From Candidatus Heimdallarchaeota archaeon (GTDB taxonomy: Archaea; Asgardarchaeota; Heimdallarchaeia; Heimdallarchaeales; Heimdallarchaeaceae), in NCBI GenBank assembly GCA_030668875.1, contig DAOVER010000004.1:1-32000 (forward strand): a stretch of DNA of 32,000 nucleotides, written 5' to 3'. The position numbers and the translations under genes were made by a program. The notes under the pieces are model-generated. The model did no database searches, had not been told where the DNA came from, and saw only the letters and a program-made list of their open reading frames with translations. How positions within the stretch are numbered: position 1 is the first letter of the stretch; each line of letters begins with the position of its first letter. Of this stretch, positions 17,813 through 28,846 are shown one piece after another.

Positions 17813-18334
17813 TTAGTATTCATGGATTTTAGTTAACTTTAGTTCTTCTTTATTCTGTACCATCTCTATCTCAATTACCTTAGTTTTCTTTTCCTTAAGT
17901 AAGAGTTCTGATATCATGTAATAGTCAGAAGGAACAATTTGATCTTTCATTGAGTTAATGTCCTTTAAAGTAAACCATTTCAACTCTCCTTCGTCTGTTG
18001 GAGATAACTTTCCTTCTTCTGTACTCACTTGACACACAATGATTATAAAATGCCGAACATTGCTTTCTTTGTCTACTTCTATCAATCTTTCATTTAATGT
18101 TCCTTTAATTCCTTCCCACTTAACTTCTAATCCTGTCTCTTCAAATATTTCTCGTAAGATGGCTTCTTTTAGTTCTTCATTCTTTTCTAATTTACCACCA
18201 ACTAAAGCCCACTTCTTCTGATAGTCTCCTTTGCTGCGATTAATCAACAACCATTTTTCTCCCCATCTGATTCCTGCTACAACAATATTTAGGATATTGT
18301 TTTTCATCTTGATAAGGAGAGAAAATAACATCAA
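17813..18334 (-). CDS. NUDIX hydrolase (probable start ATG 18307)
   Basis: Nudix box GGKLEKNEELKEAILREIFEETGL; EGELKWF. Confidence 0.9.
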   Translation of the reverse strand: MMLFSLLIKMKNNILNIVVAGIRWGEKWLLINRSKGDYQKKWALVGGKLEKNEELKEAILREIFEETGLEVKWEGIKGTLNERLIEVDKESNVRHFIIIVCQVSTEEGKLSPTDEGELKWFTLKDINSMKDQIVPSDYYMISELLLKEKKTKVIEIEMVQNKEELKLTKIHEY

Positions 18335-18356: not shown

Positions 18357-18370
18357 AAAACATTTAAAGA
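18357..18370 (+). promoter_or_regulatory. BRE-TATA promoter of the 18401-24324 operon
   Basis: AAAACATTTAAAGA ends 31 nt before ATG 18401; identical to the tRNA-Val promoter 14-mer. Confidence 0.55.
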
Positions 18371-18400: not shown

Positions 18401-18994
18401 ATGACTAACTTCATCCAACGAACATCTCAGACTATTCGCAGAAAGCTTGGCTATCCTGAAACATCGCTATTGGTTATGGGAAACAATCTTCCCGCGACAC
18501 GTAACCGTGTTTTGCTTATGCGCTCTAATACTTCTTTAAATGAATTTATCATTGACAGCTGTTTGAATGAGCTTCCATATACTGAAAAACTAAAGTTCAA
18601 ACCTAAACAATTTATCCCTTTCGAAGGTATTCTCTATCTTATAGATGCAACGAAAGAAGAAATGATTAAACATGAACGCAACTATTTCTGGGAAAAAATT
18701 ATTTGGGATGAGGAAGTAGAAGATCTTCCTATAGCTGTCTGCGCTTACAACACTGATTTACAAGGAGCTTTGACTAGAGGAGAATTAATAGAAAACATGT
18801 CTCTCATACGCTTAACAGATCGTATATGGAACCTTTTTGAGGTTCCAGATGTGGATTCATTAATTGAATCTCTAAAATGGATGAAAAAGGTAATCCATAT
18901 GGGTTACATAAAACCTTGGGTAGAAAAAGAAAAATTGTTAGAAAAAATACAACCTATTAAGGTTCAATTTCCTTCAGAAGAAGAAAATAATTAA
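18401..18994 (+). CDS. Arf/Sar-like small GTPase-fold protein with degenerate nucleotide-binding motifs
   Basis: C-terminal half aligns by eye to the Arf family (GILYLIDAT, DLPIAVCAYNTDLQGALTRGEL, LTDRIWNLFEV, SLIESLKWM); P-loop reads GNNLPATR, no DxxG, G4 reads YNTD. Confidence 0.7.
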   Translation: MTNFIQRTSQTIRRKLGYPETSLLVMGNNLPATRNRVLLMRSNTSLNEFIIDSCLNELPYTEKLKFKPKQFIPFEGILYLIDATKEEMIKHERNYFWEKIIWDEEVEDLPIAVCAYNTDLQGALTRGELIENMSLIRLTDRIWNLFEVPDVDSLIESLKWMKKVIHMGYIKPWVEKEKLLEKIQPIKVQFPSEEENN

Positions 18995-19013: not shown

Positions 19014-20561
19014 ATGACAATTTCAATTGAAAATATAATGAAGGATGGTTATTCTGGTTATTCCGTTCGTTCTATATTAATGAATCCAGAATTCCGTGAT
19101 AGAGTTTCTAAAGACGTTACTGTTCGTGGTAATGAAGTTGGAAAAAAACTTGTTATGGATAAATTAGCTGTTGGTGGTAAAGTCCTAATTACAGGTCCAA
19201 CAGGTGAAGCCAAAACTCTTTTTGCAAGAGTATTGCTTGACCACATTGTTAGAGAAATTAACAATTACAAATACCATATCGGCGGTTGTCCATTCTTAGA
19301 AGATGCCGGATACATTGTAGATATCATCAATAACTTTCCATCAAATCCTTTTGCTGGAATTAGAGTTATGCAATCTCTATGTCCGTATTGTAGACAAAAA
19401 ATCGAAGGTGTTTTATCTGATGGAAACAGTTCTGTACAACTAGACAATACAAATAGCATACTTGAAATTTCTCCAAAAGAAGTAGTAAGTAGGTTAGGAA
19501 AACTCGATGCTACAAAAACACTAGTCAGAAGATCACAACTTGATCCAAGAAACGATCCTGAAAGTCTCTATATGCTACTTGCAGGTGTCGAAAACTTAGA
19601 AGAACTGTTTGGCAAAGAAACTCAAACTACTTATGCCGCCACCTCACACAAGGTAGGTGTTCTTTCCCACGGTATATTAGTTGTGAATGAAATTCAGAGG
19701 CTCCCATTAACACTATTAGAATCATTGATGGGTTTTCTTGAAGAACCAATGGGTATTAAATACAACATCCAAGGAGAACCAGTTTACATAGATGGTGCCG
19801 TAATCTTTACATCTAATGCACCACTGACAGTCTTTGGAGAAGAAAGTCAACCTATTATCAATCGTATTCCTGAAGTACTATGGCCCGCACGTTCTGTTGA
19901 AAGCAGAGAACAAATTATACGTGATATGTTTGAAGAACAGATTGTTCTATCACGAAAGAAAATCACAGCAAATCCTTCTATTATACAATTGCATGAATTG
20001 GAAAAAGGTTCTACAGATTTTGTTAGCAGACTTGCAGTAGATTTTCTTGCATATCTTGGAAATAATTCCTTACCTGCTAACCTAAAATCAAAGGGCATTC
20101 GTTCAGAAAGTCGTATGGCACGTACCGATTTCTATTCTGGTCTTGATGAAATCCATGATCCACAAAGAAATCCTCACATAGATTTACGTACTATGAACAA
20201 TATCATTGGTGAGACAGTGCTTTTACAAGCTAGAGAAACAGCTACGGATGCCAATGTTATAACTCTGGAAAAGCTACGAAGTACAATGAATGCTTACGAT
20301 ATACCTGTTTCGATGCTCAATGATGCTCTTCAACAGATAAAGATTCTTTTGAGAACATCAATAAAAGAATCAGAAGTTTCTATAAGTGTTCAAGATATCT
20401 CTGAAGATATTTCAAAGATGAAAGCACTAAGTGATAATGAACTAGCAGATCTGATTGTAAAGTTTGAAGGTTTAGATAAGTACAAAGACAAAATCCGAAC
20501 AACAATAATTGAGAGTCTTAGACCATCTTACGAGCAATTGTTAAGAGTAGATTACATCTAG
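19014..20561 (+). CDS. AAA+ ATPase, Mg-chelatase/MoxR-like clade
   Basis: Walker A GPTGEAKT (aa 61-68), GGCPF and CPYC, Walker B ILVVNE, FTSNAP sensor-1, PIINRI Arg finger. Confidence 0.85.
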   Translation: MTISIENIMKDGYSGYSVRSILMNPEFRDRVSKDVTVRGNEVGKKLVMDKLAVGGKVLITGPTGEAKTLFARVLLDHIVREINNYKYHIGGCPFLEDAGYIVDIINNFPSNPFAGIRVMQSLCPYCRQKIEGVLSDGNSSVQLDNTNSILEISPKEVVSRLGKLDATKTLVRRSQLDPRNDPESLYMLLAGVENLEELFGKETQTTYAATSHKVGVLSHGILVVNEIQRLPLTLLESLMGFLEEPMGIKYNIQGEPVYIDGAVIFTSNAPLTVFGEESQPIINRIPEVLWPARSVESREQIIRDMFEEQIVLSRKKITANPSIIQLHELEKGSTDFVSRLAVDFLAYLGNNSLPANLKSKGIRSESRMARTDFYSGLDEIHDPQRNPHIDLRTMNNIIGETVLLQARETATDANVITLEKLRSTMNAYDIPVSMLNDALQQIKILLRTSIKESEVSISVQDISEDISKMKALSDNELADLIVKFEGLDKYKDKIRTTIIESLRPSYEQLLRVDYI

Positions 20562-20574
20562 ACCGGCATAATTA

Positions 20575-21981
20575 GTGCCCAATGGAGATAATAGCATGCC
20601 CCATAGAATAAATTTCATAACAGCAGAAGAATTCACTGACCCTATTCAAGCATATGGAGACGTTGAATTCATCTTAGATTTTGAAGATGCTGCTCAAGTA
20701 CTTAGGTTATGGCGTAATCCACATTTAGGAAGAAGTTCTCGTGAAGGAGCAGTTCTTTCTCTTGCTGCAAAAAATGCTGTGGCAATGGAGAATATTGTTC
20801 AAAAGATAATGACAACTTATTTGACTGCTAACGAAGAAGAACGTTTACTAAACGAACTCAAAATCCTGCGGTTTATGGGTGATAGGATTCTCCCTGATGT
20901 ATTGGAAAGAGTAAATCGCAATGAGCTTCAAACTCTGGAAGAAATTCTTAAGTACATACAAGATCTTCTTCGTAATCTTAAATACGAAGGATCAGTTGAT
21001 TTAGACCAGCTGGCAGAAAAGCTCAATCAACTGCAAGAGATAATTGATATTGAAATAACAGATGCTTTTGGTAGAAAGAAACGTATATCTAGAGAAAGTG
21101 TTATGGATTTACTTGGAAAAATCCTCGGGCGTTTTCTTTTAAAACAAATATCCGTGGCACCAATCGACGAAGTGCAGAAGAGACCTAGGGGCACTATCAG
21201 ACTTAAAGAGACTTATAAGAGTGCAATTTTGAGTTCTCAAAATATACCGCCAACTTCTGTTAAACAAGAAGACATAATTCGGGTGAAAAAAGATAGACGA
21301 TCACTTGTGTATCTAATTGTGGACATGAGTCAATCTATGAAAAAAGCTGTTTTTGAAGGTAAAATGTCAAGGCTAGATGGGGCACTCTTAACTAGTTTAA
21401 GTTTATACTATTACTTCAAAATAATGAATCGTCGAAAAAGGAAAAGATTTGACATGTTTAAACTTGCCGTAGTTCCAGTTAGAAAGAACCCAACTGTCGT
21501 TGATGATGATAGTAAAATGGAAAACTACCTTCTAACAGCTGACGCAAAGGGTAAGACTTACATGGTTCAAGCTATTCAGACCGCCATTGAACACGCAAAA
21601 AAGCAACGTGTGGATAAGGATATTGATGTGTACTTCACAATAGTTACAGACGGTATGCCCAATGTTCCAACTTTTCCATATGATTATCGAAAAAATGAGG
21701 AGTTGCAGAAATACTTCTCTGAAATTCAAACCAAAACGAAACCAGAAACAATAGATTGTTTGATTCAACTCAATGGGATTTTCAAACATCTTAAAAATGA
21801 TAGAACAAGAAACTGGAACATCTCCTATTTCCTTATGGGGACTGAATCTCTACGTAATAAGGAGTTGTTCATTCACACAAAACAGATGTTGAAAGGTATA
21901 ACACGACCCATTCTTATCGATCCTGCTCAGATAAAGAAACTGGGAGAACAAATTTTAAGGGAGAGTATGATGCATGCTTAA
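20575..21981 (+). CDS. VWA domain protein with intact MIDAS (probable start ATG 20596)
   Basis: LIVDMSQSM (DxSxS), GKTYM, TIVTDG; preceded by a helical N-domain and GTIRLKETYKSA segment as in AAA-associated VWA proteins. Confidence 0.88.
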   Translation: MPNGDNSMPHRINFITAEEFTDPIQAYGDVEFILDFEDAAQVLRLWRNPHLGRSSREGAVLSLAAKNAVAMENIVQKIMTTYLTANEEERLLNELKILRFMGDRILPDVLERVNRNELQTLEEILKYIQDLLRNLKYEGSVDLDQLAEKLNQLQEIIDIEITDAFGRKKRISRESVMDLLGKILGRFLLKQISVAPIDEVQKRPRGTIRLKETYKSAILSSQNIPPTSVKQEDIIRVKKDRRSLVYLIVDMSQSMKKAVFEGKMSRLDGALLTSLSLYYYFKIMNRRKRKRFDMFKLAVVPVRKNPTVVDDDSKMENYLLTADAKGKTYMVQAIQTAIEHAKKQRVDKDIDVYFTIVTDGMPNVPTFPYDYRKNEELQKYFSEIQTKTKPETIDCLIQLNGIFKHLKNDRTRNWNISYFLMGTESLRNKELFIHTKQMLKGITRPILIDPAQIKKLGEQILRESMMHA

Positions 21982-23554
21982 AACCAAAACTGAATTTGAT
22001 GAGATAGTCCGAGTTTATAATTTAGCAAGAGAAGATTTCAAAGCTCTTGTAGGCGAAACTCCTGAAAACTATCGTGTGTTGCTTTTTGTTGACCCAGATC
22101 TACACGTTTCGGTAAATAGAGTTGTAGAAATAACTGGCACTCCACAAGCTATTTTGACAGCTGAACAAATAACTCATCTGAAGTCTGCTCGTATAAACGA
22201 TTTCTTGCCAGTTGGAAAAGAGACAGTCTATAATTCTCTCCCTACTTTGATTTATCTATCAGCCCCTTCATATGAACTTAACAAGGAACAGGAATTTACT
22301 CTTAGAGTAATGTTCATTCATGCTTTTGCTCATGCTTACATGAATGAAAAAACTGAGTCAAACTCAGCACGAACACTCTCCAGACTTTATCAGATAGACA
22401 CTGTTTTGAAGGAACTAATGACAAATAATGTTTTTCAGCTAAACAAAGAATCATCCGATGGGCATTCTTGGGCATGGCAATATTTCCAAGATTTAATTGG
22501 TGTAATTCGATTGTTCACCGAAGCTGGTGTAGAAGATTTTTACATTCCTCCTGAAATTGCTCGAAAATACACTCTATTCAATAATTTTTCAATTGAAGCT
22601 ATTAACTATTTGTCAGAAAGAGCAAAAGTATCAAGGAAAAAACATCTTCACGAACTAATTGACGAAGGTTTTGCACATTATGTTCAAGCTAAAGGTATTG
22701 AATATCTTATAAAATCAGGAGATTATGAGTTCAAGAAAAGTGATGAGGATAAAGAACCAAAATTACCTAATGAGTTGAAAGCATTTTTAGCTCCTCCCAT
22801 TGGTGAATTTAGTTTAGCTGTAATGAGAAGGCTTGAAACAAAAGTTGAAAATGAAAAAGAGCTATTCAGCAAACTTTTCAGTTATAAATCAGATATTGAT
22901 TTGTTGGAAGAATTTACTTGGGATGAAGTAAAGGATTTGCTTGCTGTAAATAAGAATCTGCATTCAGAAGGTGTTGTTGAGAAATGGCACTCTACACGAA
23001 GTAGGTGGACAGATATCTGGTCTGTTTATGCATATGGTTGGAAAATTGTTGAAGAATATACTAGAAAAGTATACAGAAAGAAGTTTTCAACTTTTGGTCA
23101 ACTACAGGATGAAAAACCAAGAATAGAATCCAAAGGCTATGTTAAGGTTGATCAAAGAAAAGTGTATGTTTTTGAAGTTAATGACTATGGAATAGGAATA
23201 GATCAACTCATTATACTTCATAATCACATGGCGCTGTATAGGGATGATTTTAAGACAATTCTTCCTGCATTTGCTGATGTAATTGTATTCAAGAAAATCG
23301 GTGGAATTCACGTTTCAACACTATTTGCTGTGCATAAAACAAAACACCAACCTCTATCTCCATATAATTTGCCGGTTGTAACCAGAGCTGTTCAAGTTAC
23401 TAAACGAAAAGATGCTTACAAATTTGATTTAGATGAAGAATCTGAAGATAAGATCGATGTGAGCAATGTTGATTATACCTATTTACGCAAATTGACCCAA
23501 CCTCAAAGAGGAGCAATTGCGTATTTAATAAAAGAAGGATTGTTTGAATTATGA
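21974..23554 (+). CDS. Hypothetical protein with zincin-like motifs (HAFAH, EGFAHY)
   Basis: 526 aa ORF overlapping both neighbours; FIHAFAHAY at aa 116-120 and DEGFAHY at aa 231. Confidence 0.8.
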   Translation: MLKTKTEFDEIVRVYNLAREDFKALVGETPENYRVLLFVDPDLHVSVNRVVEITGTPQAILTAEQITHLKSARINDFLPVGKETVYNSLPTLIYLSAPSYELNKEQEFTLRVMFIHAFAHAYMNEKTESNSARTLSRLYQIDTVLKELMTNNVFQLNKESSDGHSWAWQYFQDLIGVIRLFTEAGVEDFYIPPEIARKYTLFNNFSIEAINYLSERAKVSRKKHLHELIDEGFAHYVQAKGIEYLIKSGDYEFKKSDEDKEPKLPNELKAFLAPPIGEFSLAVMRRLETKVENEKELFSKLFSYKSDIDLLEEFTWDEVKDLLAVNKNLHSEGVVEKWHSTRSRWTDIWSVYAYGWKIVEEYTRKVYRKKFSTFGQLQDEKPRIESKGYVKVDQRKVYVFEVNDYGIGIDQLIILHNHMALYRDDFKTILPAFADVIVFKKIGGIHVSTLFAVHKTKHQPLSPYNLPVVTRAVQVTKRKDAYKFDLDEESEDKIDVSNVDYTYLRKLTQPQRGAIAYLIKEGLFEL

Positions 23555-24324
23555 GTATTGCGAATTTTCTTAATGGATTAGGTATGGGTAGAAAATTACA
23601 TAGTGAGAACCCACTTGACCGAGCTCACTTTGCTTTGTTTCAACAGATCAAGGGAAAGGCAAAAACAGTGAGAAAACTGCTTCCACTCCTAGAAGATTCG
23701 GAATGGAATGTGAGAAACTCAGCTTCTTCTTCTATACTATTTCTTGTTTCAAAATACCCAGAATCAAAGAAAGAGGTTCTATCTCACTTACATAGTTTTG
23801 TTGAAAAAAGTTCCTTATCTGTCAAACTATCAATATTAGAAGTATTGGGGAAACTAAAACATTATGATTCTAAACCCTATCTCATTAAAATGCTTGAAGA
23901 AAGTGGTTATGATCTGCAATATGCAACTATAAGAGCAATTGGATACTTAGATGATGTAGATGTTTTATATCCGCTCAAAAATGTTGTATATGCCCGTGAT
24001 TACATTACAAAACGAGCAGCTATTCTATCAGTAATTAGAATTACATCTTCTGTTAAAGAAGAAGAGATTATCAAGAAACTAACTCCACATATTCATCTGA
24101 TAATTGAATCCTATCTAGAATTGAACAAATTAGATGAAGTTGTAACCAAAATATTAGATTATGGTGATCCTGAATCATTCCCAGATATGAAAGGGTATAC
24201 TGAATCCGAAATAGTAAAACTAGAATCTCTTATTGAGACAAAAGATTATAGTGTAGAAATGTATCAAAATTTCGCTAAGTTAATTTATCCTACATACTTC
24301 CCTATAGCAGAAAATGTAAAGTAA
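23551..24324 (+). CDS. HEAT-repeat protein
   Basis: Repeated LLPLLEDSEWNVRNSA / LIKMLEESGYDLQYATIRAIG / LKNVVYARDYITKRAAI helical hairpins; ATGA overlap with the upstream gene. Confidence 0.82.
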   Translation: MSIANFLNGLGMGRKLHSENPLDRAHFALFQQIKGKAKTVRKLLPLLEDSEWNVRNSASSSILFLVSKYPESKKEVLSHLHSFVEKSSLSVKLSILEVLGKLKHYDSKPYLIKMLEESGYDLQYATIRAIGYLDDVDVLYPLKNVVYARDYITKRAAILSVIRITSSVKEEEIIKKLTPHIHLIIESYLELNKLDEVVTKILDYGDPESFPDMKGYTESEIVKLESLIETKDYSVEMYQNFAKLIYPTYFPIAENVK

Positions 24325-24882: not shown

Positions 24883-25055
24883 AGAATCCGATTCCGTTTT
24901 ATGCTTCTTAAAAACAAGTATTACAAGAATGATACACTCTATCTTTTTTTAGCAATTTCCCATCCAGCAAAAACAAACGTATCTAGGTTTATTAAGTGAA
25001 AACTGTCTATCAGATAAGCATACTTTTTAACTTTAAGAAGATAGGAGAAATAACA

Positions 25056-27032
25056 ATGCCATTAGATATCGAGACACCTCTAAAACCAAGAGGAGACCAA
25101 CCAAAAGCTATTCAAAAGCTAGTTGGAGGGATAAAGAAAGGCAATCGATATCAGACTCTTTTGGGGGTTACTGGTTCAGGCAAAACCTATACTATGGCAG
25201 CTGTAATTGATAAAATTAAGAAACCTACTTTGATTATTGGCCCTAACAAAACTCTAGTGGCTCAGCTTTTTGGTGAGTTTAAAACTCTCTTTCCTTCTGC
25301 AAGCGTCAATTATTATGTTTCCTTTTATGACTATTATCAACCTGAAGCATATCTTCCTTCAAAGGATATGTATATTAAGAAGGATGTAGATATAAATGAG
25401 GAAATTGAGCGTTTACGACATACTGCTTTAGAAGCTCTTGCAACTCGCGATGATGTTATCGTATGTGCATCTGTTTCATGTATCTATGGAACAGGCCCTC
25501 CTGAATTGTACCGTTCCAATCAGATAAAATTGAATGTTGGTGATGCTTTTGATCGACAAAAATTAATGCTTGAACTTGTCAAGAATCAGTATCAACGAAA
25601 CGATGTTGCACTCACTCGTAAATGTTTTAGAGTTCGTGGAGATTCTATTGACATCTTCCCATTATATGGTGATTATGTTTATCGCATCGAATTCTTTGGA
25701 GATGAAATTGAGCGTTTGACTGCCCGTCACCCGGTATCCGCAGAGAAGATGAAAGAATATGGGCATTTGTCAATCTTTCCTGGGACACAATACCTTGCCA
25801 ATGACGCCTACTTTGAGAGAGCTCTGGAAGATATATCTGTAGAACTTGATATGCGATTAGCTGAATTGGAAAAAGAAAACAAAGTAATAGAAAGGCACCG
25901 ACTGAAACAACGAGCACTTTATGATTTAGAATTATTAAGAGAAACAGGATCCTGCCCAGGTATTGAAAATTACTCAAGACACTTTGATAGAAGGAAACCT
26001 GGAGAACAACCTTACACCCTTCTTGATCACTTTCCAGAAGACTTCCTGTTAATCGTTGATGAATCACATTTAACGATACCACAAATACGAGGAATGTATG
26101 GTGGTGATCATTCTAGAAAGAAGAATCTGATCGAATACGGTTTTAGACTTCCATCAGCACACGATAACAGACCTTTCAAATTTAATGAGTTCCGTAACTA
26201 CATGAATACAGTCATCTTTGCTAGTGCTACTCCTGCTCCCTTTGAATTCCAAGTATCAAATCAGGTTATTGAACAAATTATACGTCCTACTGGTTTGGTT
26301 GATCCCAAAATAGATTTAAGATCAACAAACGGACAAATTACCGATCTTCTAAGTGAGATTAATCAGAGAACGAGTAAGGGTGAAAGAGTTCTTGTAACAA
26401 CTTTGACGAAAAAAAGCGCTGAAATGCTTTCGGATTACCTTCTTGACATGAAAGTAAAATCTGTTTATCTTCATCATGAAGTGGTTACTTTAGAAAGGAT
26501 TTCCATCCTCCGTGATTTAAGATTAGGTAAGTATGATGTTGTAGTTGGTATTAATCTTTTAAGAGAAGGTTTGGATTTACCTGAAGTTGCTCTTGTTGCT
26601 ATTCTTGATGCAGATAAAGAAGGTTTTCTACGATCTAGGAGTTCATTAATACAACTAATGGGGCGTGCTAGTAGAAATGTACACGGTAGTGTTATTCTTT
26701 ACGCAGATAATTTGACTAATTCAATGAAAACAGCTATTGCAGAAAATAATCGTAGAAGAAGATTACAACAAGATTACAATAAACAACATGGTATTAAGCC
26801 AACAACAATCAGAAAAGAAGTTAAATCCATTGTAGAACACCTTATGCAAATTACACCCAAAGAAGAGGAAAAAATTGAAGTACCCAAGGGTCTTACGAAG
26901 GAAGATCTTCTTTATGTTATTGAAGATTTATCTAGCCAAATGGCTGAAGCAGCAGGAATATTAGATTTTGAAAAAGCTGCTCTTTATCGCGATAAAATTC
27001 AAGAACTTGAGAAAATGGTGGAAAGCAGATGA
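25056..27032 (+). CDS. uvrB: Excinuclease ABC subunit B (ORF track start 24996; ATG 25056 preferred)
   Basis: GVTGSGKT, SFYDYYQPEAY beta-hairpin, GIENYSRH, DESH, GFRLPSA.DNRP, EQIIRPTG, GINLLREGLD, C-terminal UVR coil; AGGAG at 25043-25047. Confidence 0.97.
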   Translation: MPLDIETPLKPRGDQPKAIQKLVGGIKKGNRYQTLLGVTGSGKTYTMAAVIDKIKKPTLIIGPNKTLVAQLFGEFKTLFPSASVNYYVSFYDYYQPEAYLPSKDMYIKKDVDINEEIERLRHTALEALATRDDVIVCASVSCIYGTGPPELYRSNQIKLNVGDAFDRQKLMLELVKNQYQRNDVALTRKCFRVRGDSIDIFPLYGDYVYRIEFFGDEIERLTARHPVSAEKMKEYGHLSIFPGTQYLANDAYFERALEDISVELDMRLAELEKENKVIERHRLKQRALYDLELLRETGSCPGIENYSRHFDRRKPGEQPYTLLDHFPEDFLLIVDESHLTIPQIRGMYGGDHSRKKNLIEYGFRLPSAHDNRPFKFNEFRNYMNTVIFASATPAPFEFQVSNQVIEQIIRPTGLVDPKIDLRSTNGQITDLLSEINQRTSKGERVLVTTLTKKSAEMLSDYLLDMKVKSVYLHHEVVTLERISILRDLRLGKYDVVVGINLLREGLDLPEVALVAILDADKEGFLRSRSSLIQLMGRASRNVHGSVILYADNLTNSMKTAIAENNRRRRLQQDYNKQHGIKPTTIRKEVKSIVEHLMQITPKEEEKIEVPKGLTKEDLLYVIEDLSSQMAEAAGILDFEKAALYRDKIQELEKMVESR

Positions 27033-28846
27033 GCCTTTTATCAGATTTAGAATCTTTACCTTTAGAACCCGGAGTTTATCTAATTAAGGATAAAGATGAA
27101 AAAATTGTATATGTCGGTAAAGCTAAAAACATTCGAAACCGAGTAAAACAACATTTTCAAACTACTCATGACCCAAAAGAGGATAAACTACAGGAGTTAG
27201 CTAGTAGAGTAGATTGGGTGATTACAAGAAATGAATCAGAGGCTCTAATTTTAGAAAAGAAATTAGTGAAACAGCTTTCACCTAGATTAAACAGCCAACT
27301 GAAAGATGACAAATCACATCTTCTAATTCGTATATCGATGGAAGATGAATACCCTCAGTTTTATATTGCTAGAGAAACTGATTCTAGAATTCCTAAAAGT
27401 GTATACTTTGGTCCCTTTACCAATGATACGATGCTTAGACAAACAGCAAAACTTGTTCTGAAACTATTTCCAATATGTGATTGTGGGAAGTGTAAAGAAC
27501 AAACTAGAAAAAGTAAAGCTCCTCTACGTTGCATGAGAGAACGATTGGGCAGGTGCTTAGCTCCATGTTTAAATGACGTTTCTCCTGAAGAATATGGAAA
27601 AACAGTCAAAAACGTTATCGCTTTTCTAAAGGGCGACGTTGCTGATTTACTTGATAATCTTGGAAGGGAAATGTGGACAGCTTCTGAAGGATCAAATTTC
27701 GAAAAAGCTGCAAACCTGCGTGACCTTATTCAAGCTGTTTATACAATTTTGAACATACAAAAAGATCTACACTCAAAGAAAAGGAATGTTGACTTATTGG
27801 CTTATAGAGAAGAGGATAGTATCCTTTCTTTATGTAAGATAGAAATTCGAGAATACAGAATTCACAACATTAAAGCTTTCATTTATGACGAGAAAGAAGA
27901 GATGTTAAATCTGGGTGAAGTGTTAACCTACATCTATGGTTTAGAGAAACCGAGATATAAGATTCAAGCTAGTAATGACTTCATTTCTAGGTTCAAGAAT
28001 AATATTGGTTTCCAAATTTTAAGTATTAGAGGAGATACAGCTAAACAACTAAACGATGTTACAGAGAAGAATGCATCTAAAGAATTACAAAAGTATATGC
28101 GAGAATTAAAACACCATGAGGACGCGGAAACCGTTCTAGAGGAAGTGAAAACCATTCTTTGTTTAGATAAAATGCCGGAGATAATACATGGTTTTGATAT
28201 ATCGACATTGAAAGGGCAACATTCAGTAGGTTCTTGTGTAGTTTTTGCTAATGGGAAACCAAGGAAAGACCTATACAGACGTTTTCGTATTAGAAAAGAA
28301 TATTCAGATCCCAATGATTATGAAATGATGAAGGAAGTAATTTCCCGTAGATACAAATCCGACACTCTCAAAAAGGATCCTTTACCGAATCTGCTGATAA
28401 TTGATGGTGGGAAGGGACAACTGAATATTGCTGTAAAAGTTTTAAAGACCTTGCAATTGAACGTTCCAGCAATAAGCATCGCTAAGAAAAACGAGGAAAT
28501 ATTTGTAGAAAATCAAAGCGAACCAATCAAACTTGAACAAAAGTCAGCTGTTCTAAGGTTAATTCAATATGTCAGAGATGAGTCTCACAGGTTTGCAATA
28601 AATTACCACAAGAAGCTAAGAGAAAAGTCTGTAAAGCGGACAATATTCGATGATATCAAGGGAATCGGTAAGAGTAAAGTCCAGGCTCTATTCCACGAAT
28701 ACAAAAACATACAAGAAATTGCTAATTCTGATATATCTGAAATGAAAAAAGTTTTAGCTGTTAATGAAAAAATAGCTACGCAAGTTATAGATTTAGCTAA
28801 AAAAAATTTGAATAAGAACTACATTCGAGAAAATTCGAATAAATAA
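27029..28846 (+). CDS. uvrC: Excinuclease ABC subunit C
   Basis: GVY...YVGKAKN GIY-YIG domain, Cys-rich CLAPC, UVR coil, GFDIS, LLIIDGGKGQ, RDESHRFA, HhH IKGIG. Confidence 0.96.
   Translation: MSLLSDLESLPLEPGVYLIKDKDEKIVYVGKAKNIRNRVKQHFQTTHDPKEDKLQELASRVDWVITRNESEALILEKKLVKQLSPRLNSQLKDDKSHLLIRISMEDEYPQFYIARETDSRIPKSVYFGPFTNDTMLRQTAKLVLKLFPICDCGKCKEQTRKSKAPLRCMRERLGRCLAPCLNDVSPEEYGKTVKNVIAFLKGDVADLLDNLGREMWTASEGSNFEKAANLRDLIQAVYTILNIQKDLHSKKRNVDLLAYREEDSILSLCKIEIREYRIHNIKAFIYDEKEEMLNLGEVLTYIYGLEKPRYKIQASNDFISRFKNNIGFQILSIRGDTAKQLNDVTEKNASKELQKYMRELKHHEDAETVLEEVKTILCLDKMPEIIHGFDISTLKGQHSVGSCVVFANGKPRKDLYRRFRIRKEYSDPNDYEMMKEVISRRYKSDTLKKDPLPNLLIIDGGKGQLNIAVKVLKTLQLNVPAISIAKKNEEIFVENQSEPIKLEQKSAVLRLIQYVRDESHRFAINYHKKLREKSVKRTIFDDIKGIGKSKVQALFHEYKNIQEIANSDISEMKKVLAVNEKIATQVIDLAKKNLNKNYIRENSNK

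Follow-up and report, generated by a model that had tools for sequence, protein, structure and literature searches.

The stretch of DNA analysed here (the window) comprises positions 1-32000 of contig C38, from a Candidatus Heimdallarchaeota genome of 3.23 Mb (92% complete, approximately 34% GC content). It encodes a 197-residue protein (P0001), called here the pseudo-Arf, that has the core fold of an Arf GTPase and has lost all of the GTP-binding motifs. The gene is the first in a cluster of five, all on the forward strand, and is followed by those for an AAA+ ATPase, a von Willebrand factor A (VWA) protein, a 526-residue orphan with a SpoVR-like fold (X) and a HEAT-repeat protein. The pseudo-Arf is probably, though with considerable room for error, a nucleotide-free pseudoGTPase with the role of fixed subunit or adaptor in an AAA+/VWA/SpoVR-like/HEAT machine. 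Taxonomic families of Asgard archaea are designated below by number, f1 being that of the window genome.

Motif loss, ancestry and selection

An earlier note on this DNA described an open reading frame (ORF) at this position as an Arf-like protein with all G motifs eroded. The ORF, which begins MTNF, and each of the strings quoted from it are found where that note placed them: GNNLPATR (residues 27-34), GILYLIDAT (76-84), DLPIAVCA (108-115), YNTD (116-119), LTDRIWNLF (138-146) and SLIESLKWM (153-161). The motifs were compared in an alignment with three canonical Arf-related (ArfR) paralogues of the same genome, which read GLD[AS]AGKT, PTIG, DVAGQ, NKQD and CS[AI]. On the pseudo-Arf side of this alignment, the G1 motif GLDAAGKT is replaced by G[ND][ND]xPATRNR, the G3 motif DVAGQ by ELPYx (ELPYT in the window protein), the G4 motif NKQD by YN[ST][DN] and the G5 motif CSA by EVP; the G2 threonine falls within a deletion. 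In the structural model described below, the interswitch is a single strand (residues 49-56) followed by a loop (57-75). The erosion claimed in the earlier note extends to every family member, with G1-G5 all replaced or deleted. Judged from these alignments, the P-loop Lys/Ser, switch I, DxxGQ and guanine-specificity motifs are lost and the Arf core fold is kept. Because every G motif is gone, the pseudo-Arf most likely neither binds nor hydrolyses GTP and cannot toggle; the motif loss predicts a class i pseudoGTPase, that is, one with no nucleotide binding.

Orthologues from other families are equally degenerate at the former G1, reading GEKSETRDY, GKNKELINK and GKTAPLLST in f2, f4 and f7, respectively. 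When 1.84 billion representatives were searched with the family by HMMER, with no length limit, approximately 20 full-length clusters (50% identity) of 156-203 residues were returned, all without a P-loop. The first 22 matches all lack GxxxxGK[ST]. Below them are canonical Arf-like proteins, aligning through their C-terminal half: nearly all of the full-length matches in this range have both a P-loop and NKxD, and those without a P-loop are mostly fragments. Complete loss of the motifs therefore marks the edge of the family. No fusion forms were found among pseudo-Arf homologues of near length or in the HMMER search. Homologues are named in the databases either "hypothetical" or "ADP-ribosylation factor-like", and their records are labelled Candidatus Heimdallarchaeaceae or Heimdallarchaeota.

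The Arf ancestry of the protein can be recognized in its C-terminal half. The Pfam Arf profile (PF00025) scores 29.9 bits (E = 4.7e-7; cut-off 22.3), with a match limited to residues 74-163 (profile positions 82-172 of 174), and a phmmer search of Protein Data Bank (PDB) chains retrieves Arl1, Arl8, Arl3, HodArfR1 and Arf6 through the same half (E values of 4e-6 to 2e-5). An AlphaFold 2 (AF2) model from 20 homologues (predicted local distance difference test [pLDDT] 68, predicted template modelling score [pTM] 0.66) has the order helix, strand 1, helix 1, strand 2, loop, strand 4, helix 3, strand 5, helix 4, strand 6, helix 5 and one extra helix. When this model was used as a Foldseek query, the best 50 PDB matches all belonged to the Arf family or Sar1 (probability 1.00). 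VIA-align matched it to Arl2, Arf6, Arl6, Arl3, GerdArfR1, Sar1 and HodArfR1 with Z scores of 13-13.8 (root mean square deviation 2.5-4.2 over 131-161 residues). These results bear out the Arf scaffold that the earlier note had aligned with Arf1.

A profile of the pseudo-Arf family scores 23-28 bits against ArfR-type paralogues of its own genome and approximately 0 against Ras/Rab-like ones. In a tree, the pseudo-Arfs form one clade (Shimodaira-Hasegawa-like approximate likelihood ratio test [SH-aLRT] 99) on a long stem. This clade is nested among the Arf/ArfR proteins, and the whole cluster, pseudo-Arfs included, is split from the Ras/Rab-like proteins by a branch whose support is also 99. 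This placement fits a single motif-loss event. The suggestion of an unusual "eukaryotic-signature variant" stands only in part: the family is an archaeal ArfR offshoot specific to Heimdallarchaeia, and no tie to any eukaryotic Arf-like lineage was found.

Arf-like proteins of other kinds were also observed. The Arf profile has 39 matches in genome G000. Among them are clusters, at C18 1769-17400 (four within 16 kb) and C71 13001-35845, of Arf-like proteins that have long C-terminal extensions and a length of approximately 300-340 residues.

The pseudo-Arf is under purifying rather than relaxed selection. The ratio of nonsynonymous to synonymous substitution rates (dN/dS) is 0.04-0.16 (Nei-Gojobori method, 19 unsaturated pairs), compared with 0.04-0.08 for the adjoining AAA+ gene, and the reading frame is intact in at least 50 genomes. 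Among 20 f1 pseudo-Arfs of 53-97% identity, 48 columns are invariant. These include G27, R34, N35 and R36 of the former P-loop, with T33 nearly invariant; in the wider family, G27 is the only former P-loop residue kept. Conservation across the family was assessed in alignments A5 (18 sequences from four taxonomic families) and A8 (27 sequences). In these, W97, W102, P110, L124, E131, S134, L135, R137, D140, W143 and E147 are invariant and E98, I130, R141 and W160 are nearly so. The kept columns map to helices 3 and 4 and to strand 6, away from both the switch side and the former nucleotide pocket, and this block is a candidate partner-binding face. A separate metagenomic protein, P0061 (1044 residues, eight matching stretches), was the only long match of the HMMER search. 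It consists of tandem units of approximately 140 residues, each with ERHQFWETLL, and resembles the pseudo-Arf solely in the ERxxFWE motif of helix 3.

The protein begins with a cationic amphipathic helix (residues 2-16) that has a hydrophobic moment of 0.54, equalled by 2.6% of shuffles, and a net charge of +4. The helix is present in 19/20 f1 sequences (moment 0.44-0.64, charge +3 to +6), the 20th being N-terminally truncated, and is missing from the f7 orthologues. The earlier note had singled out an N-terminal helix lacking Gly2. The helix is indeed present, but the missing glycine is nothing special, as this is usual in Asgard ArfRs, which have no myristoylation signal (bioRxiv 10.1101/2024.02.28.582541). 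At the other end, the C-terminal extension contains an extra helix (residues 173-182) and a tail whose charge is not conserved (acidic in f1, basic in f7).

The operon and its distribution among Asgard genomes

The five genes are tightly packed, with intergenic gaps of 19 and 13 nt followed by overlaps of 8 and 4 nt. Their order (pseudo-Arf, AAA+, VWA, X, HEAT) is the same in 27/28 loci from families f1, f4 and f7. In a survey of 399 Asgard genomes, the pseudo-Arf and X were found in almost identical genome sets: both in 28/29 f1 genomes (the pseudo-Arf as a single copy) and in the single f2 genome (1/1 each), with 11/12 and 10/12, respectively, in f4 and the same counts in f7. Family f3 has X in 3/3 genomes and the pseudo-Arf in 0/3. 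Neither protein was detected in the 22 genomes of f5 or in any other family. A defence system was considered and rejected: PADLOC gave two weak, non-specific hits, and the genes, which are single-copy and syntenic and follow vertical descent, would be out of character for a mobile defence island.

A related locus, L059 (2894-8530), has a 36%-identical AAA+ gene back-to-back with an operon for a VWA protein (464 residues), an X-like protein (469 residues) and an unknown protein of 391 residues. This arrangement may be an ancestral form of the core.

Co-variation of the five proteins was examined with a distance-residual test on the 27 loci that have all five genes, with background divergence regressed out. 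The strongest correlation is that of the expected pair, AAA+ and VWA (r = 0.81). It is followed by X with HEAT (r = 0.55), pseudo-Arf with HEAT (r = 0.54) and pseudo-Arf with X (r = 0.45); values for the pseudo-Arf with VWA (r = 0.06) and AAA+ (r = 0.01) are close to zero. These residuals suggest two sub-modules, one of AAA+ and VWA and the other of pseudo-Arf, X and HEAT, and on this measure the likelier place of the pseudo-Arf is beside the HEAT and SpoVR-like proteins rather than beside the AAA+. A three-chain complex prediction (AAA+, HEAT and the pseudo-Arf as partner) had a median score of 0.69. In swap controls the score was 0.27 and 0.00 with the partner swapped and 0.61 with the AAA+ swapped, so it is not specific to this AAA+ and speaks neither for nor against a complex.

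The AAA+ protein has the motifs GPTGEAKT (Walker A), VVNEIQRL (Walker B) and FTSNAP (sensor 1), and a putative Arg finger within INRIPE. The usual Asp of Walker B is replaced by Asn (N225) and the second Gly of Walker A by Ala, and both substitutions are invariant among 18 orthologues down to 36% identity. Pfam matches are all weak (Sigma54_activat and AAA_5 in 6/6 orthologues, Mg_chelatase in 2/6), and its closest neighbours in the Atlas are clusters of archaeal AAA_5/Mg_chelatase proteins, 470-545 residues in length (score 0.97). A PrkA-type ATPase was rejected as an identity for this protein, as AAA_PrkA (PF08298) has no match and the nearest clusters are MoxR/ChlI-like. One f4 genus, which reads TSPF...SPYSR, has lost the His/Cys cluster that otherwise lies between Walker A and B (HIGGCPF...CPYCRQ); therefore, any zinc site in the AAA+ is not universal. 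At loci L058 (6365-8551) and L060 (5835-7990), in metagenome-assembled genomes labelled Promethearchaeota and Hodarchaeota, an AAA+ gene 41-45% identical to that of the operon is preceded by a gene for a 192-residue non-Arf protein, with no VWA, X or HEAT gene nearby. A conserved gene for a protein of 182-185 residues lies divergently upstream of the AAA+ locus in both.

The VWA protein has a complete metal ion-dependent adhesion site (MIDAS) of the form DxSxS...T...D, with D250, S252, S254, T328 and D359 all invariant. Its start is listed as a GTG, but is probably the ATG at 20596, which encodes the conserved Met8 (MPHR) where conservation begins. A Sec23/24-like VWA, which would be a natural partner for a Sar/Arf protein, was considered and dropped: the nearest Atlas clusters are prokaryotic VWA_2 + Rv0959_3rd proteins, and the VWA gene of the operon is paired with an AAA+. 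We found nothing functional in the literature on Rv0958/Rv0959.

X has no Pfam or NCBIfam family, and Foldseek returned no PDB match at E <= 0.001. An Atlas shape search with its AF2 model placed SpoVR clusters first (TM scores 0.54/0.59 over 387 aligned residues), and VIA-align matched residues 1-336 to gluzincin domains (M32, M1, TAF2, LTA4H and thermolysin; Z = 8.9-7). Atlas feature scores are below 0.9, and homologues identified by sequence are solely Heimdallarchaeial. A degenerate HAxxH motif is conserved only in f1, f7 and one f3 sequence, with Q/Y/N...M/L in f4 and some others; therefore, X is probably not a peptidase. It would seem to be another dead enzyme of this operon, alongside the pseudo-Arf.

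Coordinates of the pseudo-Arf gene, its parts and the partner genes in the window
Feature	Position	Strand	Description	Basis
Candidate archaeal TATA box	18363..18369	+	TTTAAAG, approximately 35 nt 5' of the pseudo-Arf ATG	By eye
Pseudo-Arf gene (P0001)	18401..18994	+	197 residues; first in cluster	ORF
Cationic amphipathic helix	18404..18448	+	Residues 2-16	AF2 model, hydrophobic moment
Former P-loop (G1)	18479..18508	+	GNNLPATRNR	Alignments including canonical ArfRs
Switch region	18509..18622	+	11-residue deletion (G2 Thr lost); DxxGQ replaced by ELPYT	Own-genome ArfR alignment
Family-wide conserved block	18689..18841	+	Residues 97-147: helix 3, strand 5, helix 4, loop, strand 6	A5, A8
Former G4	18746..18757	+	YNTD replaces NKQD; N117 invariant in f1, Asp variable	Alignments
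C-terminal extension	18896..18991	+	Residues 166-197, approximately 30 residues added past the Arf domain	Model, alignment
MoxR/ChlI-like AAA+ ATPase	19014..20561	+	515 residues	Alignments A2, A9; Atlas neighbours
VWA protein	20575..21981	+	Listed start GTG 20575; MIDAS intact	Alignment A4, Pfam VWA_2
Orphan X	21974..23554	+	526 residues, SpoVR-like fold	AF2 (pLDDT 79, pTM 0.82)
HEAT-repeat protein	23551..24324	+	257 residues; last gene	Pfam HEAT_2 (E = 9e-10), alignment A7

A NUDIX hydrolase gene (17813-18334, reverse strand) lies divergently upstream of the pseudo-Arf gene and has the same position in f1 loci L001-L004 and L051; the two genes may have a promoter region in common. Bacterial-type uvrB and uvrC (24996-28846) lie directly 3' of the cluster. 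They are also found at L001/L002 and not at L003, and are outside the conserved five-gene module. The sequencing runs listed as containing this DNA nearly in full are four marine-sediment DNA runs from one study, two of which may be its source; no RNA run is among those listed.

Proposed role and alternative explanations

In the role that we favour, the protein is a pseudoGTPase descended from an Asgard ArfR GTPase, with the Arf core retained and, in f1, the N-terminal amphipathic helix as well. The protein would be made together with the AAA+, VWA/MIDAS, SpoVR-like and HEAT proteins, and would contact the machine through the helix 3/helix 4/strand 6 face, including two invariant tryptophans. 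The cationic helix might either hold the complex at a membrane or dock onto a partner. The earlier note had proposed an interaction module; this fits the fixed operon position, the co-occurrence and the off-pocket conservation. The analysis shows the fold, the loss of the motifs, purifying selection, one origin, synteny and co-occurrence, whereas the absence of nucleotide binding, the physical association with the machine, which protein is the partner and what the helix does are inferred.

Several points weigh against this role. Confidence in the pseudo-Arf model is only moderate, as its pLDDT indicates. Conservation of the former P-loop in f1 could mean that the site still binds something, and the correlation among pseudo-Arf, X and HEAT could stem from shared fast rates and saturation. 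One f4 genus has the pseudo-Arf gene 1.8 kb upstream and on the opposite strand. No pseudo-Arf was detectable in the three f3 genomes (87-88% complete), which keep AAA+, VWA, X and HEAT, and the L059 locus has AAA+, VWA and X without it. AAA+, VWA and X therefore appear to be the older core and the pseudo-Arf an accessory to it; the machine can work without the pseudo-Arf, and one lineage dropped it.

The same machines without a pseudo-Arf would also be consistent with a protein that is no stable subunit at all: it might transiently chaperone the assembly of the HEAT or SpoVR-like protein, or be a client that the AAA+/VWA pair remodels. The pseudo-Arf evolves faster than its neighbours (22-28% identity between families, compared with 51-58% for the AAA+ and 44-49% for the VWA protein), and AAGAB, an assembly chaperone for adaptor subunits, provides a precedent. 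VWA/MIDAS proteins of known MoxR-type pairs typically hold clients, which would suit a client. However, the tight, translationally coupled spacing of the genes suggests roughly matched synthesis, as for subunits, and we consider a chaperone or client unlikely.

The conserved residues of the former P-loop in the f1 sequences raise another possibility, that the remodelled pocket is a ligand-operated switch in which non-canonical binding of a nucleotide or another anionic ligand regulates the AAA+/VWA machine. The two arginines at the start of helix 1 could be phosphate-binding, and pseudoGTPases of classes ii and iii still bind nucleotide (PMC12722892). Yet the TRNR motif is lost in the f2, f4 and f7 orthologues, and the protein lacks the Ser/Thr that coordinates Mg, the threonine of G2, the Asp/Gly of G3 and the Asp that binds guanine. 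With switch I deleted, little is left to switch, making a regulatory pocket distinctly improbable.

The pseudo-Arf might instead have a role apart from the operon, for example as a decoy for regulators or effectors of genuine ArfRs, with its position reflecting hitch-hiking. The genome encodes many other small GTPases besides the three canonical ArfRs, and an Arf shape could compete with them. The surfaces that Arf guanine nucleotide exchange factors, GTPase-activating proteins and effectors read (switch and interswitch) are, however, those that have been deleted or replaced. Gene order is also kept in nearly all loci though orthologues are only approximately 25% identical, and the distribution of the pseudo-Arf tracks that of X, not that of ArfR; we judge a decoy to be very unlikely. 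A decaying Arf pseudogene or mis-called ORF, which the loss of all catalytic motifs might suggest, can be practically dismissed in view of the low dN/dS, the frame intact in so many genomes, the invariant columns and the consistent fold prediction.

A bolder form of the adaptor role, which we put forward as doubtful, is that an Arf GTPase was converted into a nucleotide-free, helix-bearing adaptor that pairs with the HEAT solenoid and couples it to the AAA+/VWA motor. If true, a prokaryote would have an "Arf plus solenoid" module that runs without a GTP cycle, and partnerships between Arf folds and solenoids (as in coat and adaptor recruitment) would already have been explored in Heimdallarchaeia, the archaeal lineage closest to eukaryotes.

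Comparison with known systems

Research treats Asgard Arf proteins as forerunners of the membrane traffic of eukaryotes, and very little is known of their archaeal partners. The likely partners of the pseudo-Arf family are in the same operon, giving a defined and directly testable set of five proteins. The pseudo-Arf has the same core fold as the Asgard ArfRs HodArfR1 (8OUK/8OUL) and GerdArfR1 (8OUM/8OUN), with Z scores of 13-13.4. Like them, it has an N-terminal amphipathic helix without Gly2 and falls within the Arf/ArfR cluster, and its helix 3-helix 5 half is recognizable by sequence as that of ArfR, Arf, Arl and Sar proteins. It differs from all of these in lacking G1-G5, in the deletion of switch I and in the approximately 30 extra C-terminal residues. 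In published work, Asgard Arfs bind GTP and their G boxes are conserved (PMC11914678; bioRxiv 10.1101/2024.02.28.582541). A text search of these two sources found no description of a motif-less Arf family, and one of them mentions unannotated divergent sequences.

With class i pseudoGTPases such as AAGAB psGD, RhoBTB and p190RhoGAP pG, the pseudo-Arf has in common a GTPase fold from which the nucleotide motifs are absent (the classes are summarized in PMC12722892). These are eukaryotic, nucleotide-free protein-binding modules that are not Arf-derived. The pseudo-Arf, in contrast, is archaeal, stand-alone and part of an AAA+/VWA operon, and its lack of binding is a prediction. By analogy, AAGAB seems the best mechanistic precedent: its class i pseudoGTPase domain binds and stabilizes adaptor subunits through a non-switch surface (PMC12490416).

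The AAA+ and VWA genes resemble the MoxR/VWA pairs RavA-ViaA, CbbQ-CbbO, NorQ-NorD, CoxD-CoxE and ChlI-ChlD, in that an AAA+ of the helix-2-insert group adjoins a VWA protein with a complete MIDAS. They differ in the Asn-Glu Walker B and the Ala of Walker A, and in the presence of three extra fixed partners, one of which is Arf-derived. We know of no described MoxR/VWA system that includes an Arf-derived protein.

In architecture only, the operon also resembles the PrkA(YeaG)-YeaH(DUF444)-YcgB(SpoVR) triad of bacteria and haloarchaea, in which one operon encodes a P-loop ATPase, a MIDAS VWA and a SpoVR-fold protein. In six bacteria, the genes of this triad are cofit with one another (bioRxiv 10.1101/072470). 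In hhalign comparisons with the E. coli proteins, the DxSxS, T and D of YeaH align with the MIDAS site of the operon VWA, but probabilities were 0.1% for X and YcgB, 0.3% for VWA and YeaH and 2.9% for AAA+ and YeaG (Walker A only). The Pfam SpoVR and AAA_PrkA profiles are below their cut-offs in this genome, and Pfam SpoVR was not found in 250 Asgard genomes. The bacterial triad, unlike the operon, has no GTPase-fold or HEAT partner.

The operon is uncharacterized and confined to a few Heimdallarchaeial families, and combines an Asn-Glu AAA+, a MIDAS protein, a SpoVR-like pseudo-zincin and a HEAT protein with the pseudo-Arf. The conversion of small GTPases from switch to scaffold would, on the favoured role, have already occurred in Heimdallarchaeia. 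PseudoGTPases and MoxR/VWA pairs are both known; what is new is a pseudoGTPase that is Arf-derived, prokaryotic and embedded in an operon. To our knowledge, it would be the first Arf-derived class i pseudoGTPase outside eukaryotes.

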